Shown piece after piece: positions 17,695 to 24,272 of a stretch of DNA of 64,000 bases. The DNA is from Myxococcales bacterium (GTDB lineage: Bacteria; Myxococcota; Myxococcia; Myxococcales; UBA5297): contig JAVBMV010000007.1 in NCBI GenBank assembly GCA_031552145.1, forward strand, positions 34,486 to 98,485, written 5' to 3'. The notes below the pieces were generated by a model. That model saw nothing but the letters and a program-made list of their open reading frames with translations, had not been told where the DNA came from and ran no database searches. Within the stretch, counting starts at the first letter, position 1. Each line of letters opens with the position of its first letter. A program made the translations under genes and the position numbers.

Positions 17695-17895
17695 TTGATC
17701 GGCGTGCTCCGCAATCAGGGACTCGTGCGAACTGCGGCCAAGCTACGTTTTCTGATGGGGTAGTGGTCCCACCCATAGCCCCCACACCATCTGGCTCCAG
17801 AGCGGCCTGCGCGAAGAGCGCCCATCCGAATTTCTCCTGACGCCTGGAAAGGCGAACATACGGCGTCTCCGGAAGAGCTGCTCTTCGTCCTCGCG

Positions 17896-18111
17896 GAGGG
17901 CGCCTCCGCGCGTCTTCACGACCTCGATCCCGAGACCTACCTGCGAGATATCTTCCGCGTCTTGGCTCATTGGCCGAAGGACCGTTGCCTCGAACTCGCC
18001 CCCAAGTACTGGGCCGCTACCCGCGCTTGTCTCGACCACGACCAGCTCGCCAACGAGTACGGGCCGCTCTCGATCCCGGCGCCGCTCCTCGGTGCGCAAA
18101 CCGCCTCGTAA
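17896..18111 (+). pseudogene. IS66-family transposase, C-terminal remnant only
   Basis: My own translation gives ...GASARLHDLDPETYLRDIFRVLAHWPKDRCLELAPKYWAATRACL...PLLGAQTAS*. This matches the conserved IS66 C-terminal motif (L.g.dP..YLrdv...i..hp..r..eL.P..W). No upstream DDE domain is present. Confidence 0.6.
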
Positions 18112-18172
18112 CGCGCGGCGCAGCAGCGCCTGCCGTGCGGCTCGGAAGTGGACCTCTGTGCAGGGTGCGGGG
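18079..18172. repeat. Left copy of a 94-bp inverted repeat (IS66 3'-end sequence); partner at 22857-22950
   Basis: By my manual alignment, the reverse complement of 18079-18172 matches 22857-22950 at 88/94 positions. Confidence 0.85.
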
Positions 18173-18537
18173 TTCGCCATGTCGCCCACTTTCGGTGATC
18201 AGCTCTGCACTGGGTAGACGTGGCTCGTGCAGCGGATACATTACGCCAGAAGCCTGCCACCGCTCGCATCTGGTCTTTCGAGGCTCCACGGGGAGTCGCT
18301 GGAATTCCTATGAAGGATCAAGGGCTTGCGCCCTGAACTGGTCTTGCACCATCCGAACGGAGAGTCGCCAGATGCAGCATGGGCGAGGACGACACACGGA
18401 TCGCGGAGCCATCGCTCCACTCAATCCGCGGCCGCGCCTCTTGGCAGCTTTCTTGACGCGACGGGCGCCTCACGCACCCCGGCGTCACGCCCCTGGACAA
18501 CTTCTCGAGAGCAGTCTCCCATCTGCGGGCAAAAAAG

Positions 18538-18585: not shown

Positions 18586-18630
18586 AGTCAGGGAGACAGG
18601 ATTTGAACCAGCGACCCCTTGGACCCGAAC
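18586..18630 (-). repeat. Displaced 3' fragment of tRNA-Pro; island-distal att direct repeat
   Basis: agtcagggagacaggatttgaaccagcgaccccttggacccgaac matches 24197-24241 at 43/45 positions. That span covers the 3' 43 nt of the intact tRNA-Pro. Confidence 0.85.
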
Positions 18631-18821
18631 GCGCCCGAGAGGCTTGGGAAGGAGTGGCAGGGGATGGCACGGTTTCGCAAGCAGCGGATATTGCTGGGGA
18701 TGCGAAGCAGGAGAAGGCAACAGGAAGAGGCCGTGCCACGCGGTCCGAGGCAGGATTTGGTCCAACTGTGGTCCAAGGGTCGCGGGCGATCCGAGGGCTG
18801 AAGACGCTGCCGGAGCTGCTC

Positions 18822-18992
18822 TTGTCGGTGGGCGAGGTGGCCGAGTCGTTGGGACTGTGTCGGGCGACGGTGTACCGGCTTTGCGAGGACGGGGAGCTGA
18901 GGCACTCGCGAGTTGGAAATTCGATCCGGATCGCAGCGGCGGACGTGAGGACTCTCCTTGAGGAGAGCGGAAAGGGAGGTGGGCGAAAGTGA
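18822..18992 (+). CDS. Excisionase-family/HTH_17 DNA-binding protein (start uncertain; a TTG at 18822 is proposed)
   Basis: ...SVGEVAESLGLCRATVYRLCEDGELRHSRVGNSIRIAAADVRTLL... It lies at the island end next to the att repeat. Confidence 0.6.
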   Translation: MSVGEVAESLGLCRATVYRLCEDGELRHSRVGNSIRIAAADVRTLLEESGKGGGRK

Positions 18993-19202
18993 TGGGCTTG
19001 GGGTTGCGGGGATGGTAGAATCCGTCCCTGACGACGTTCTCGGAGGCATCTTGCTTTCGTTGGTACCACTACTCATGTCAACCCTGACCACTTGGCGCGC
19101 AGTGGCCAGTGAGCCGTCGACCACGCACTCGGCAGAGAGAGGCCGACTCGACCTCCTAGGCAACTCCCGGATTCTCCTGGGGTGCGGAGCCGGAGCCCTA
19201 AC

Positions 19203-19223
19203 GTCGAGGGGCTCGACTTTTTT
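19203..19223 (+). terminator. Short hairpin plus T6, about 85 nt upstream of the deaminase start codon
   Basis: GTCGAG-GGG-CTCGAC followed by TTTTTT. Confidence 0.4.
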
Positions 19224-19306
19224 CTCAAGTAATCTCACTGCTGGAGAAATTTTTGGCGACCGACATTTCGCCAAGGCATTGACTACACCGGAAAGGTATT
19301 CCCCCT

Positions 19307-20878
19307 ATGTCTGCTCTGCCTGCTAGTACTATCCAGTCTTCCCGGGATTCGAGAACGACAGTAAACGAATTTCGTTCAAATCTGTTAGTGATTGGGATGG
19401 TGGGTCCAATTGGAGCAGGCGTGACAACGACCGCGCAGGCCCTAAAGACGAGGCTGAGCAATCCGGAAATTGCCCCCGACTTTAAATTTGATGTTCAAGT
19501 CATCAAGGCGAGCGATTGTATAAGGGAGTGGGCGGGCGATATTGGCGATGACAATATGGGATCGGTGGAGCGTCGGATGCGGTTTCAGGCGCTCGGGAAT
19601 AAGATGCGTTCTAAGGACCCTGCTGCCTTGGCCGCTCGTTTGTTTCTGAGAATTCATGAGCCAATAGAGACGGCGCCAAGACGAGCGTACATTCTGGATT
19701 CTCTGAAGAACCCAATAGAGATAAATTTCCTTAGAACAATATTTGGCAGTTCCTTTTTTGTTGTCGGCGTCATGTGTGCCTCCGAGCGCATTGTAGAGCG
19801 ATTGAGCGCAAAGTTTGGCGAAGAGGAAAGAAAGCGAAAGGGCGGAAAGATCGTAAGTCGAGCGTCGATAGAAGAGCTGTGTGAGCGGGACGTAAAACCA
19901 CAAGATCCTAAGGCCAAGCATTCGCAGAGGATGGCAGATGCGTTGGAGTTATCCGACTATTTTATTGACAACTCCGTTGAGCATCAACCGAGAAACAGTC
20001 TGGGGCTCATAGCAGGTGCCGAGCTTGATCGGTTCTGCTCAATAATCAGAAACGAAGACATTAGACGCCCAACGGAATCAGAAAGCGCGATGCATGCAGC
20101 ATATTCCGCGAAACACCGTAGCTCCTGTCTGTCAAGACAGGTTGGAGCCGCGCTCATAAACTCAGATGGCGATATTGTTGCCACAGGGACGAACGAGGCC
20201 CCCTGTTCGACGGGCGGCGTGTATCGAGAGGGGCGAAATTGTTGCGTCAAAAACAAGTTTGGGAGGTGCTTCGAGCGAGGTGAGGGGCAATGTCAAAGCG
20301 AAAAAATGCGAGGTGAGATTATAAATGAAGCAATAGCAGGGCTCGAGCTACCAGAAGGCAGCTCGGTGGACGCCATTAAAACGGTGTTGAATGACAGTGG
20401 AATCAAAGCTCTTACGGAGTTTGGCAGGGCTGTTCATGCCGAAATGGATGCGGTGCTTTGCGCTGCTAGGCTAGGGGTTAAGACCGGCGGAACTCGCATG
20501 TATGTCACCACATTCCCATGCCATACCTGTGCTCGCCATATCGTTGCAGCTGGTGTTTGGGAGGTTCAGTACATTGAGCCGTATTCGAAAAGCAAAGCAT
20601 TGGAGCTTCACAGTGATGCAATTGTGTGTGGGTTAGATCGCCCAGCAGATCGAAAACAGGTGCTGTTTAGGCCATTTTCCGGTGTTGCTCCTAGGTTTTA
20701 CGAGCGCGCTTTCGCGTTGCAGGCTGGCATTAAAGACGAGTCCGGATATTACAAAATCCAAGAACCCGAATGGGGAGAGAAGTGGAACTCTTTGCTCAAT
20801 GTTGACCTTCCAACATTGCGCGATGAAATCGGAAGGTCTCTAAGGGGTTGCCAGGAAGAAGAGTCGAGGGAGTCATGA
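19307..20878 (+). CDS. P-loop-kinase-like / deoxycytidylate (CDA-fold) deaminase fusion, anti-phage dCTP deaminase (DcdV/DCD) type
   Basis: The N-terminus has the Gly-rich loop LLVIGMVGPIGAGVTTTA. The C-terminus has ...SSCLSRQVGAALINSDGDIVATGTNE..., the zinc ligand motifs ...RAVHAEMDAV... (HAE) and ...TTFPCHTCARHIV... (PCxxC). GC is low, about 45-50% by eye. Confidence 0.85.
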   Translation: MSALPASTIQSSRDSRTTVNEFRSNLLVIGMVGPIGAGVTTTAQALKTRLSNPEIAPDFKFDVQVIKASDCIREWAGDIGDDNMGSVERRMRFQALGNKMRSKDPAALAARLFLRIHEPIETAPRRAYILDSLKNPIEINFLRTIFGSSFFVVGVMCASERIVERLSAKFGEEERKRKGGKIVSRASIEELCERDVKPQDPKAKHSQRMADALELSDYFIDNSVEHQPRNSLGLIAGAELDRFCSIIRNEDIRRPTESESAMHAAYSAKHRSSCLSRQVGAALINSDGDIVATGTNEAPCSTGGVYREGRNCCVKNKFGRCFERGEGQCQSEKMRGEIINEAIAGLELPEGSSVDAIKTVLNDSGIKALTEFGRAVHAEMDAVLCAARLGVKTGGTRMYVTTFPCHTCARHIVAAGVWEVQYIEPYSKSKALELHSDAIVCGLDRPADRKQVLFRPFSGVAPRFYERAFALQAGIKDESGYYKIQEPEWGEKWNSLLNVDLPTLRDEIGRSLRGCQEEESRES

Positions 20879-21795
20879 GCCGGTCTCGAACAATATTTGA
20901 ACTGATTAATGGAGAAGGCGGGGTGAATCGTGAAGGCAAGAATACGATTCATTGCAAGCCTAGCCTTTTGGAGGAACGCGACGGCCTGGAAGTATCAGGG
21001 TCTTGTGTAGATGACTCGTCCTTCACGCTCCCCACTCCTGAGTCTGAGTCGCTGAGGAACAGTTCCCGTTCGCCATTTCCGAGGACCTCCGAAGTCACAT
21101 TGTCAGAGAAGGCCGCATGGTGCTCAGGGGGGGGGCTAAAAGCGCCGGAAGAATGCCCCTGGTCCAATGACCTCGTGACAATAGCCTCGGTGTCCGTGGA
21201 CGGCAATAGCCTACCTCCGCGATTTGGCAAAGACCTAAGTTTGGATCGCGCTTTGCCGCCAGGTGTTACAATGCTTCCTGTGCCTGCTCTAGCTCAACCA
21301 AAAGTTGCTCCTGAATTGAGGCAGGGGCATTTATTTCCTGAGTATTTTATAAACCGGGCGTGGGTTGTGTTTGCTCCCAGTATGCGTGGGCATGACATTT
21401 TTAGCCTGTTCGAGCGTGACGAGACTGCTCATGTGTTTGACGTTAGGGTGCTTCGACGATTTGATTTTGCTCCTTGGCGGAGGGAAAACTGGGAGAAGAT
21501 TTCCGAGGATTTCAAAATTAAATACTACGGCGTTGTGGGCAGAGAAAAGGCCCGCGATTGGAACGACCGATGGCTCCTGTCTCAAGAAGCAAGGGGGCTC
21601 TTGTCGAAATTGTTGAGCGATGTGAAGACAGCGCGATCTGTTGTGTTTTTGGTGGACGACCGCTATGACTTCAGGATTGCGAGGCTTCTTCTTCCCGGCG
21701 CGCTGCCTCCGCCCCCTCCTTTGTGCAGATGGGAGGTCCTGTCAGTTGAATCGCCCGAGGATTTGGAGCGCACCATGTCCTTGTATTTGCGATGA
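20875..21795 (+). CDS. Uncharacterised protein translationally coupled to the deaminase (S/P/E-rich N-terminal half plus a ~170-aa C-terminal domain)
   Basis: The ATG at 20875 overlaps the deaminase TGA (gtcATGAgc). An alternative TTG at 20848 would give a 31-nt overlap. The C-terminal domain reads ...FINRAWVVFAPSMRGHDIFSLFERDETAHVFDVRVLRRFDFAPWRRENWEKISEDFKIKYYGVVGREKARDW... I do not recognise a family. Confidence 0.6.
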   Translation: MSRSRTIFELINGEGGVNREGKNTIHCKPSLLEERDGLEVSGSCVDDSSFTLPTPESESLRNSSRSPFPRTSEVTLSEKAAWCSGGGLKAPEECPWSNDLVTIASVSVDGNSLPPRFGKDLSLDRALPPGVTMLPVPALAQPKVAPELRQGHLFPEYFINRAWVVFAPSMRGHDIFSLFERDETAHVFDVRVLRRFDFAPWRRENWEKISEDFKIKYYGVVGREKARDWNDRWLLSQEARGLLSKLLSDVKTARSVVFLVDDRYDFRIARLLLPGALPPPPPLCRWEVLSVESPEDLERTMSLYLR

Positions 21796-22024
21796 AAGCA
21801 CGATGCTTCTCCGCGTTGCTTTGCTATGTTGAATGGTTGAATCAAGTGGCGAGGTTTCGACGGAGAGCGCTGGCCGTTCTGGCCCGGTTGTCCTCGTCGC
21901 GGGAGTGGCGATCTCGGGGGATCACTAACCCGGGCCAAAGGACCTTGATGAGGTCCGATGGATGCGACGTTGACCGTAAATAACCACGGCCGATGGATCG
22001 AGACTCCTGTCAAAATGGTATTAG

Positions 22025-22684
22025 TCACGCAAATGTGTCGCATGTGGGGCAGTAGAAGTTCCCTCGATGTTTTGTCTTTAGCGGTGTTTTGCTCATTGGG
22101 CCACAGCAGTTGCTGCATCGGGGAGGCGGCAAATATCTGGACGTAAGGTTTCCGTCGTACGGCTTTGTATTTTCGCCTGCTTGTTTTGATGGGGCGGGCC
22201 CCTTCAGTAACGACGGAAGGATTTCGAGAAATTCATCACGTCGTTCGCTCCAACGCGCAGTGGGAAGCGGCTTCGGAACCGGCAGGCGCTCAGTGATAGC
22301 GTAGTGGAGGTCATCAAGACCACTGTTCGTCTCGATCTTTAATGCTTGCATGCCTGCGAGCACCGCTTTCATATTCGAATAACTTACTGGAGGAACGATT
22401 ACGGGGATGAAATCTTTCGATGCAAACCAGGCGCCCCCAAGCTCGCACATGCAGAATGGGCTTTGGTAAAAGTCGTCAGACACGAGTGCGAGGACGAGCG
22501 TGGAGTCCCCCAGAGTCTCCTTGATGTACGACTTGAAGTCCTTGCCCGGCGGGATCCCCTGTCCTTTCGTAGACGAGCAAAATATTTCGCTCGGGGGGAC
22601 GCCAATTCCGCCTTCCAGCAACTTGGTGAATTCGGTCACGAGACGTTTGTCTTCCGACGCGTGACTGATGAAGAGCTTCGCCAT
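22025..22684 (-). CDS. TIR-domain protein with a C-terminal CxxC...CxxC zinc ribbon
   Basis: The ATG at 22684 is preceded by AGGAGG and gives MAKLFISHASEDKRLV... ...DDFYQSPFCMCELGGAW... contains the conserved TIR Glu. The C-terminus reads ...RCSNCCGPMSK...FYCPTCDTFA. An extended -10 (TGATATGAT) lies at 22717-22725 on the minus strand. Confidence 0.8.
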   Translation of the reverse strand: MAKLFISHASEDKRLVTEFTKLLEGGIGVPPSEIFCSSTKGQGIPPGKDFKSYIKETLGDSTLVLALVSDDFYQSPFCMCELGGAWFASKDFIPVIVPPVSYSNMKAVLAGMQALKIETNSGLDDLHYAITERLPVPKPLPTARWSERRDEFLEILPSLLKGPAPSKQAGENTKPYDGNLTSRYLPPPRCSNCCGPMSKTPLKTKHRGNFYCPTCDTFA

Positions 22685-22856
22685 GTGGTCCTCCTGCAAT
22701 GAACGTTGGTCGCTCGATCATATCAGAACTAGGCAGCGCTTCGGGTCGGAATCGCACAGGGTACGCTCCTTGACCTGCCCCCAGGAAGAAGGTCCGTTGA
22801 AAATGTGAGAGACTGGGCTCCTAGAGGAGCCTGAGATGAAGAAGAGTCTGACCTGC

Positions 22857-22950
22857 CCCCGCACCCTGCACAGAGGTCCACCTTCGAGCCGCACGGCAGG
22901 CGCTGCTGCGCCGCGCGCTACGAGGCAATTTGCGCGCCGAGGAGCGGCGC
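22857..22950. repeat. Right copy of the 94-bp inverted repeat (IS66 3' end: last ~10 codons ...APLLGAQIAS* on the minus strand plus downstream sequence)
   Basis: Matches the reverse complement of 18079-18172 at 88/94 positions. Confidence 0.85.
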
Positions 22951-23041
22951 AGCGCCGCCCTGGTGTGACGTAGCCGTGCCCGAGAAGAATGGTGCTCGAT
23001 GACCGTCTCGACTGCGGCCTCTGAGTGCCGGGGCTAGCTCG

Positions 23042-24082
23042 TTACGGCTCCTCCTCCCTCTTCTTGGGGCGCTTCGACTCGATGCGCTTCACCTCAGCCT
23101 CGAAGTCGCTCTCGAACTCACGGTCCTGGCGCACGCGAAACTTGTCGTACTGCTCCTCGGCGAGGCGCTTGGCCACCTCCGCGGAGACCTTGCCGGCGTT
23201 CACGAGCACCTCGTACTCGTTGAACTGCAGGAACGCGTCCAGCTTCGCGACCCAGTTCGCCATCTTCATCGGGATCTGCCGCGCGGCCTGGTTCTCGGCG
23301 TAGTCGAGGTACATCGACACGATGCGCTCGAGCCCCTTGATCTCGCGCTCGATCAGGTAGTTCTTGGCGACGCTGACGTCGCTCTTGAGGATCTTCCCCT
23401 TGGGTGCGTTCTTCCACGTTGTGAGCCCCATCGAGGGCTTCTCGGCGTCAGCGCGCTCGGCGATCAGCTCCGCGGCGGTCTTGCCCGTGACCGCCCAGTG
23501 CAGCTTGTTCTGCACCGTCTTGAAGAACGTCTGCGTCGTCTCGGCCTGCTTGTCGTAGTCGACGCTGCACTGCTCGTAGATGTCGGTGATCTTCAGGTAG
23601 AACCGCCGCTCGCTGGCGCGGATCTCCCGGATCCGCTCGAGCAACTCGTCAAAGTAGTCCCTGCCGAAGCGCTTGTTCAGCTTGAGCCGCTCGTCGTCGA
23701 GGACGTAGCCCTTGACGATGAACTCGCGCAGTGTCTGGGTCGCCCATATGCGGAACTGGGTGGCCTGCGTGCTGTTGACGCGGTAGCCAACCGAGATGAT
23801 CGCGTCGAGATTGTAGAACTCGATCTCGCGCCTAACATCGCGATTTCCCTCGCGTTGAACCCTCCAAATTCTTTGGAGAGTTGCCTCCGGGTTCAGCTCC
23901 CCCGAGGCGTAGACCTCCTTCAGATGGTAGCTGACGGTGCGGATGTCGACGCCGAACAGCTCGGCCATGCGCCGCTGGTCGAGCCAGAAGGTCTCGGACT
24001 CGTAGAGCACCTCGACGCGCACGGCGTCATCGGCGGTGCGGTAGAGGATCAGCTCGCCTTCCTGCGAGGTCTGGTCGGTCAT
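23042..24082 (-). CDS. RhuM-family (virulence/Fic-related) protein
   Basis: The internal ATG at 24082 gives MTDQTSQEGELILYRTADDAVRVEVLYESETFWLDQRRMAELFGVDIRTVSYHLKEVY...NLDAIISVGYRVNSTQATQFRIWATQTLREFIVKGYVLDDERLK.... The longer track ORF reads through the tRNA and is not real. Confidence 0.85.
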   Translation of the reverse strand: MTDQTSQEGELILYRTADDAVRVEVLYESETFWLDQRRMAELFGVDIRTVSYHLKEVYASGELNPEATLQRIWRVQREGNRDVRREIEFYNLDAIISVGYRVNSTQATQFRIWATQTLREFIVKGYVLDDERLKLNKRFGRDYFDELLERIREIRASERRFYLKITDIYEQCSVDYDKQAETTQTFFKTVQNKLHWAVTGKTAAELIAERADAEKPSMGLTTWKNAPKGKILKSDVSVAKNYLIEREIKGLERIVSMYLDYAENQAARQIPMKMANWVAKLDAFLQFNEYEVLVNAGKVSAEVAKRLAEEQYDKFRVRQDREFESDFEAEVKRIESKRPKKREEEP

Positions 24083-24145
24083 ATCGTGCTCCGTGCGAGG
24101 CGCTGGTCCAGCCACCAGACGGCCACGGGATCGAAGGCGGTGGAC

Positions 24146-24192
24146 CGGACATAAAGAAAGCCCCCGAAATCCTGAATGATTTCGAGGGCTTC
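24146..24192 (-). terminator. Rho-independent terminator 3' of the intact tRNA-Pro
   Basis: The minus strand reads GAAGCCCTCGAAATC-ATTCAG-GATTTCGGGGGCTTTC followed by TTTAT. Confidence 0.6.
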
Positions 24193-24196
24193 CCTC

Positions 24197-24241
24197 AGTC
24201 GGGGAGACAGGATTTGAACCTGCGACCCCTTGGACCCGAAC
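24197..24241 (-). repeat. tRNA-proximal att direct repeat (within tRNA-Pro)
   Basis: Identical to 18586-18630 at 43/45 positions. Confidence 0.85.
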
Positions 24242-24272
24242 CAAGTGCTCTACCAGGCTGAGCCACTCCCCG
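24199..24272 (-). tRNA. tRNA-Pro (anticodon CGG), CCA not encoded
   Basis: The reverse complement folds as a cloverleaf: CGGGGAG-TG-GCTC-AGCCTGGTA-GAGC-A-CTTGG-TTCGGGT-CCAAG-GGGTC-GCAGG-TTCAAAT-CCTGT-CTCCCCG-A. Anticodon-loop positions 34-36 are CGG. Confidence 0.9.

Follow-up and report, generated by a model that had tools for sequence, protein, structure and literature searches.

The window analysed here, a stretch of 64,000 nucleotides from a Myxococcales bacterium (contig JAVBMV010000007.1), carries a gene for an anti-phage-type dCTP deaminase whose stop codon overlaps the start of a second open reading frame (ORF). The locus raises the question of whether this second ORF, henceforth referred to as the partner, is a real gene that belongs with the deaminase and, if so, what it would do there. 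A preliminary description had proposed the two ORFs as a candidate new two-gene defence module. Genome comparison shows that the deaminase-partner module makes up a large, widespread, phylum-spanning clade; the proposed pairing stood, and it proved not to be peculiar to the window. The effector deaminase is already known. Its obligate protein partner, the family of that partner and the fusions of that family to Argonaute systems appear to be new relative to the libraries and literature searched.

The first gene (19307–20878, + strand) encodes a protein of 523 amino acids which, judged by its profile matches and motifs, is an anti-phage-type dCTP deaminase with a P-loop-kinase-like and a CDA-fold domain. 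The protein matched the PADLOC dCTPase profile with 464.7 bits (E = 1.5e-139) over residues 15–513, and Pfam dCMP_cyt_deam_1 (PF00383) with an E-value of 1.9e-16 over residues 257–422. The score against NCBIfam NF041025, “anti-phage dCTP deaminase”, was 375.6 bits, just short of the equivalog cutoff of 400; close relatives in the same clade carry this name at NCBI. The N-terminal P-loop-kinase-like domain contains the lysine-less, G-rich loop GPIGAGVTT (aa 33–41), and the C-terminal zinc CDA-fold domain contains an HAE motif (H377/A378/E379) and the motif PCHTC (404–408). Positions G33, G36 and G38 of the loop, the HAE residues and P404/C405/C408 are invariant in a 22-sequence family alignment, in agreement with the DcdV/DCD architecture first proposed for this protein. 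More than 5000 homologues of the window deaminase were found, the nearest being ~42% identical. Conversion of dCTP to dUTP, which starves phage DNA synthesis, is established for members of the family and is presumed for the window enzyme.

The junction between the two genes reads GAGGGAGTCATGAGC. The partner ATG at 20875 overlaps the deaminase stop codon TGA at 20876–20878 (ATGA, 20875–20878), and a GAGG Shine-Dalgarno-like element lies upstream of this ATG. An alternative partner start, the TTG at 20848, would give a 31-nt overlap with the deaminase. Both overlaps had been described previously and their coordinates were confirmed. The resulting ORF (+ strand) encodes 306 amino acids from the ATG (20875–21795) or 315 amino acids from the TTG (20848–21795). 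It is divided into a window-specific N-terminal extension (aa 1–132, 20875–21270) and a conserved domain (aa 133–306, 21271–21795). Canonical members of the partner family are 165–195 amino acids long (~180 aa), so the window copy has 132 extra N-terminal residues. These residues are rich in Ser, Pro, Glu and Gly, are without homologues in an exhaustive search, and are predicted to be unstructured (predicted local distance difference test, pLDDT, ~33; no secondary structure; no coverage in the multiple sequence alignment). The disorder suggested earlier for the N-terminal half was therefore upheld by the prediction, although the disordered segment is an addition specific to the window and not a property of partners in general.

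The coding status of the extension was assessed from its reading frames and codon usage. Its 132 codons contain no in-frame stop, whereas each of the two alternative frames has 9; of 20,000 shuffles of this stretch, just 50 (0.25%) remained open, and the best codon log-odds were obtained in frame 0. By these statistics the extension looks translated. Together with the score of the conserved domain against its family hidden Markov model (HMM; 170 bits), they show the partner ORF to be a real gene, a point on which the preliminary description had called for a check. An internal ATG at 21271 (aa 133) matches the canonical start of the partner family, with the element AGGTG placed 6 nt before it. 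A 174-amino-acid product from this ATG is also possible beside the long one.

The family of the conserved domain was difficult to detect. A word-indexed search with the partner alone matched only itself, and exhaustive HMMER searching returned three weak matches of small proteins to residues ~148–294. A profile built from those three proteins recovered 12 members, two of which came from contigs also present among the deaminase loci described below. The motifs LFP, (V/I)FDLRPxPRFD, I-x-Y-x-D, P..L.P and GW(D/E)(I/V) are common to the family, and the window domain carries the LFP motif, FD(V/L)R..(P)RFD and the invariant R/R/Y. In an alignment of 60 partners, R63 and Y89 alone are invariant and P56 and R75 are near-invariant. 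These columns contain neither a catalytic acid nor a His, Cys, Ser or Lys, and this composition points to a binding or adaptor role for the partner rather than to that of a hydrolase.

No existing model covers the partner family in Pfam, NCBIfam and PADLOC scans of the 60 partners, consistent with the earlier remark that its C-terminal domain could not be assigned, and NCBI names its members “hypothetical protein”. AlphaFold2 (AF2) modelling with the family alignment gave a confident alpha/beta domain (pLDDT 80.9, pTM 0.78). Foldseek searches of this model against PDB and BFVD returned nothing significant; the best E-value was 0.02, and the highest-ranking neighbours, with TM < 0.5, had generic sandwich folds of P-loop and Rossmann-like type. 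Because these matches are not significant, no fold family is given to the partner beyond a DUF488-like N-terminal half. DUF488 was the only faint Pfam signal to recur (2/60 members, E 0.07); the window partner itself did not match the DUF488 model (PF04343), and no family member reached its gathering threshold. At the profile level, hhalign of the partner family against a profile of six real, annotated DUF488 proteins gave a probability of 90.6% (E 1.3e-6, 71 columns) in the N-terminal half only, with reversed and column-shuffled controls at ≤1.1%. The two families share a beta-alpha-beta ‘D(V/L)R..P’ alpha-beta ‘I.Y’ N-terminal half. They differ in that the C-terminal C-x-E...C-H-R, invariant in the six DUF488 sequences, is absent from the partner alignment; this region does not align with the partner, and there is no convincing structural match. 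The N-terminal half of the conserved domain is thus a remote relative of DUF488, so that the faint DUF488-like pattern reported earlier holds for this half and not for the rest of the domain. The literature searched assigns no function to DUF488, and the partner is not described in the literature consulted on DcdV/DifV, on dCTP deaminase with Argonaute or TIR-APAZ, or on DUF488.

Conservation of the pair was examined in 80 species-level GTDB genome loci holding the closest deaminase relatives, in which every ORF was scanned with the partner HMM. A member of the partner family lies immediately 3' of the deaminase, on the same strand, in 79/80 loci. Start/stop offsets, counted over 82 rows, among them the window itself and two duplicate assemblies of it, were −4 nt in 34, −8 nt in 19 and +1 in 10. 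One exceptional locus (L053, 7359–8441) has an rve-type insertion sequence (IS) transposase between deaminase and partner, showing that mobile DNA can split the pair. In another (L006, 7633–9612), a 659-amino-acid SMC/AAA-like ATPase stands directly after the deaminase stop in place of the partner and may be an alternative partner. This ATPase has weak PADLOC similarity to Ppl, mad3 and LmuB, and the adjoining enzyme is the only clade deaminase devoid of a partner.

The association was also found in the reverse direction. Five of six independently found partner homologues (P0123, P0124, P0127, P0129 and P0132) follow a deaminase, and in the case of P0123, P0124 and P0132 this is a deaminase of 538–569 amino acids. 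The preliminary description had allowed that partner homologues might not be found beside deaminases, and the opposite was observed. The sixth homologue, P0131 (L086 5001–5582 / L087 3794–4375), follows a 219-amino-acid gene with weak Rv2179c likeness, in a neighbourhood that is mobile-element-like (Peptidase_M78, AEP-TOTE/helicase); its context hints that the partner domain can pair with other enzymes. A third conserved module gene was ruled out, since no other gene accompanies the pair in more than 7/79 loci. Distances between deaminases and between their partners correlate (Mantel r = 0.76, 0/2000 permutations), and the two proteins co-diverge, the partner much faster (mean identity 22% vs 50% for the deaminase).

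Comparison with more distant deaminases shows the partner to be restricted to one deaminase clade. The E. coli AW1.7 deaminase, which was validated experimentally, was cloned alone and defends alone (Tal et al., 10.1101/2021.04.26.441389). It is ~26% identical to the window enzyme over the deaminase half, and at its native locus no gene in the same direction follows it and no partner-family ORF is present. The deaminase of a Rhizobium CIAT894 plasmid, WP_085739277, is typical of the clade and 39% identical to the window enzyme; it is followed by a 179-amino-acid ‘hypothetical protein’ which overlaps its stop by 4 nt and belongs to the partner family (144.8 bits). No partner-family match was found beside the deaminases of E. 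coli pRHB10, enterotoxigenic E. coli (ETEC) H10407 p58, 4.6-kb Klebsiella plasmids, Vibrio, Zymomonas and Pararhizobium, all 31–35% identical to the window enzyme. Among viral contigs, the partner was present in 4/4 loci scoring at least 640 bits on the clade profile and in 0/32 at 400 bits or less; an intermediate locus (L106, 531 bits) is without it.

Partner-less enteric deaminases have instead a 60–61-amino-acid ORF just upstream (L097 2260–2445, L098 2198–2383, L099 124–306); in L098 and L099 it lies 13 nt ahead of the deaminase start, in L097 35 nt. These small ORFs show no mutual similarity and occupy the difV position. DcdV-type enzymes are constitutively toxic and need a cis-encoded inhibitor, DifV, which lies 5' of the gene and whose homologues share no sequence similarity with one another (Hsueh et al., 10.1101/2021.03.31.437871). 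Because of this lack of mutual similarity, a 5' RNA may also be present beside the window deaminase.

A C-terminal motif of the deaminase also bears on the clade boundary. The window enzyme has PEWGEKW, which includes W489 and G490, at its C-terminus, and such a motif occurs in about half of the partner-bearing clade: by strict regular expression, P[ED]WGxxW...SYxELE is present in 42/81 clade deaminases. P[ED]WGxxW is absent from all eight partner-less deaminases examined. It was dropped as a universal clade marker on the strict count and on its presence in the partner-less L006 enzyme, and is retained as a lead, a candidate docking site for the partner.

In 11/80 loci (L010, L012, L019, L021, L022, L023, L032, L049, L069, L077 and L081; at ~7.5–11 kb in each locus) the partner domain forms the N-terminal part of a fusion with a TIR domain. 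PADLOC placed the fusion proteins among the Argonaute-associated TIR-APAZ proteins (Aga_TIR-PNTD1-PNTD2, highest score 452 bits), components of SPARTA. A short prokaryotic Argonaute (pAgo) follows next (pAgo_I, 680 bits) or is fused too; in L032, L077 and L081, partner, TIR, APAZ and pAgo form one polypeptide of 1136–1179 amino acids. An intact deaminase is retained in these loci, and the start of the fused partner is coupled to its stop codon. The SPARTA-linked loci, which form seven separate groups in a 29-leaf subclade of the neighbour-joining tree, may stem from one monophyletic fusion event or from several. The founding SPARTA paper mentions Mrr as the one N-terminal add-on and mentions no deaminase, and the literature searched yielded no SPARTA system coupled to a deaminase.

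From these observations, we consider with moderate confidence that the partner acts as a dedicated subunit, a regulator or adaptor that gates the deaminase, probably the protein counterpart of the DifV RNA. The module would be a two-gene nucleotide-depletion defence carried on a small tRNA-Pro islet. Its first gene would supply a DcdV/Tal-type effector, which after activation would turn dCTP into dUTP and so deprive phage DNA synthesis of dCTP, and its second a subunit produced in step with the deaminase through translational coupling. From the comparative data we infer that the partner binds the deaminase, that it restrains it and that infection is the trigger: in its most likely role the partner would act as a protein ‘safety catch’, like the 5'-encoded DifV RNA for DcdV, and the toxic deaminase would be kept silent until infection removes or remodels the partner. 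A partner fused to SPARTA would tether the deaminase, as a second effector, to a guide-directed DNA sensor.

The proposed module resembles several known systems and is identical to none of them. It shares with the deaminases of Tal et al. (E. coli AW1.7 / U09; PADLOC ‘dCTPase’, NF041025) the two-domain architecture and the defence-island context, and dCTP depletion is presumed in both. The E. coli enzyme works alone, with no partner ORF at the native locus, whereas the window clade has a coupled partner and, in many members, the extra conserved C-terminal motif; with a partner in 79/80 loci, the window clade does not appear to be a stand-alone, single-gene system. The DcdV-DifV system of Vibrio cholerae and enterobacteria has a homologous deaminase (31–35% identity for the ETEC, Klebsiella and Vibrio versions) and a comparable two-gene operon logic, in which a toxic enzyme is restrained by a cis-encoded factor. 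There, however, an untranslated RNA (or small-ORF region) on the 5' side of the gene serves as the factor, whereas here it would be a ~180-amino-acid protein encoded 3' of the deaminase, and the two arrangements occur in separate clades. SPARTA is approached through the 11 related loci in which the partner forms the N-terminal domain of a TIR-APAZ protein, resembling the Mrr add-on; the window itself has neither APAZ nor pAgo, and its SpbK-like TIR domain is encoded by a gene of its own, convergent with the partner. Like a type II toxin-antitoxin system, the pair forms an overlapping two-gene operon of a potentially toxic enzyme and a small, fast-evolving cognate protein. Unlike such a system, the putative antitoxin is downstream, has no helix-turn-helix or ribbon-helix-helix domain, and is also found as a domain of large immune proteins.

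Several observations weigh against a gating partner. The AW1.7 enzyme defends alone, so the deaminase fold does not intrinsically need a partner. The window copy is atypical: it has a 132-residue extension, and the Pro that is near-invariant among partners is missing from it. The candidate docking motif is confined, in its strict form, to 42/81 clade members and occurs in partner-less L006, and the P0131 homologue is not beside a deaminase. Classical type II antitoxins are usually encoded upstream and have a DNA-binding domain, while the partner is downstream of the deaminase and has none. Fusion to SPARTA proteins of 650–1180 amino acids fits a labile antitoxin poorly and an adaptor or sensor better. 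Alternatively, the partner would be not an inhibitor but an infection sensor, activator or assembly adaptor that switches the deaminase on, in response to a phage cue or through target-induced oligomerisation that clusters the SPARTA fusions; it might, for instance, promote the oligomeric state on which CDA-fold deaminases depend. The partner is indeed N-terminal on TIR-APAZ, where effector-type Mrr sits in known Mrr-TIR-APAZ variants, its rapid divergence is typical of phage-facing components, and the invariant R/R/Y suggest ligand or nucleic acid binding. DcdV-type relatives, however, are constitutively toxic and require an inhibitor rather than an activator, and most partners are just ~180 amino acids long and have no recognisable sensor domain; activation by the partner appears rather unlikely.

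It is improbable that the partner is a nucleotide-binding relay, which would sense dUTP/dUMP or the substrate and feed back on the deaminase or signal to TIR-like effectors. Such a relay would resemble systems that use a deaminase-made nucleotide as an immune messenger, and base-modified nucleotides have a precedent as immune signals (10.1101/2024.12.20.629578). The conserved Arg/Arg/Tyr in the DUF488-like half, the repeated fusion to a TIR NADase module and the TIR gene adjoining the pair in the low-GC block of the window would fit this role. It is opposed by the failure of Foldseek to detect a nucleotide-binding fold (best E 0.02, TM < 0.5), by the many loci, the majority, that have no effector other than the deaminase, and by the activation of the SPARTA TIR domain, already accounted for by guide/target binding. 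The occurrence of P0131 without a deaminase, and the common clustering of defence genes, would also be expected if the partner were a functionally independent defence or housekeeping gene, co-inherited because the genes overlap; the 79/80 adjacency with a conserved stop/start overlap across phyla, the co-divergence, the strict limitation to one deaminase clade and the lack of a third conserved gene make such independence highly improbable. A different doubt concerns the window alone. The 306-amino-acid ORF could be mis-delimited, the true product being the canonical 174 amino acids from ATG 21271 and the ATGA coupling being incidental. The family-aligned start with its AGGTG element and the homologue-free, unstructured extension would accord with a short product, but the frame is open through 132 codons, the codon bias of the extension is best in frame 0, and overlapping stop and start codons are a conserved feature of the partner family; mis-delimitation is possible but doubtful. 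The reading of the partner as a regulatory or adaptor subunit that gates the deaminase is the one carried forward here.

In the window, the pair lies within a 5.6-kb islet (18586–24241) at tRNA-Pro(cgg) bounded by 45-nt direct repeats. The tRNA gene (24198–24272, − strand; ARAGORN) is the integration target, and its 3' 45 nt (24197–24241) form the proximal repeat. The distal repeat (18586–18630; repeat family D1), an att-like copy of the tRNA-Pro 3' end, is 96% identical to it (43/45), and these are the only two copies in the window, with none expected. An integrase was looked for among the islet ORFs and none was found. GC content is 48–54% over 19.2–22.6 kb, and the only low-GC block of the islet (19001–22700) averages 52.7%. 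The low GC reported in the preliminary description for the two genes is therefore real, although the immediate flanks are at 61–66%, not the ~70% given there, and only more distant DNA is at 66–74%.

Upstream of the pair, an ORF at 18603–18992 (+ strand) encodes an HTH_17/excisionase-family DNA-binding protein (domain aa 73–121; Pfam HTH_17 3.7e-14, TIGR01764 ‘excise’ 1.8e-12) whose true start is probably internal. A terminator-like GC hairpin with a T-run (19193–19214) parts this gene from the deaminase, ~90 nt upstream of the deaminase ATG; the count of terminator-like elements around this region is not above shuffled expectation. Downstream, 229 nt after the partner and convergent with it, a gene at 22025–22699 (− strand) encodes a TIR-domain protein (TIR aa 5–160; Pfam TIR_2 5.2e-11; PADLOC spbK 105 bits) with a C-terminal CxxC...CxxC zinc-ribbon-like tail. 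Its GC content of 53.9% places it in the same low-GC block. No APAZ domain was found in this TIR protein and no pAgo ORF in the islet. Conserved membership of the TIR gene in the module was not supported, since TIR genes standing alone seldom adjoin the pair in other loci. The gene could act in an independent, SpbK-like defence or encode a linked effector; the shared low GC and the TIR-APAZ fusions elsewhere keep a link to the pair possible. Neither this TIR gene nor the SPARTA fusions figured in the preliminary description. Beyond it, an ORF at 23042–24082 (− strand) encodes a RhuM-family protein (PF13310 6.7e-114) of the PADLOC candidate defence family PDC-S05 (519 bits). A 94-nt inverted repeat (18079–18172 / 22857–22950; 94% complementary) has a host-like high GC and crosses the islet boundary. 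Its right copy duplicates the 5' end of the ORF at 17743–18189 (− strand) in truncated and inverted form; the repeat is probably a rearrangement scar and may be related to loss of the integrase.

In PADLOC, in NCBIfam and in the two founding papers, the anti-phage dCTP deaminase figures as a single-gene system, the sole known exception being the RNA-regulated Vibrio form. For the partner-bearing clade, heterologous tests of the deaminase alone may therefore mislead, and a defined protein pair makes it directly testable how nucleotide-depletion enzymes are held off and triggered. Through its natural fusions the partner domain links nucleotide depletion with Argonaute/TIR immunity and suggests multi-effector SPARTA variants, and it would provide a first functional handle on a DUF488-like domain. 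More speculatively, and with only slight confidence, the DUF488-like partner domain may be an unrecognised immune adaptor/sensor module that plugs a dCTP-deaminase effector into different sensors. By itself it would serve, across hundreds of species, as the gate on the deaminase; with TIR-APAZ/pAgo it would bring about depletion of both NAD+ and dCTP against invader DNA, or allow a deaminated nucleotide to serve as a signal. If this adaptor/sensor reading is true, ‘single-gene’ dCTP deaminase defence would be mis-specified in current catalogues for a major clade of these enzymes.

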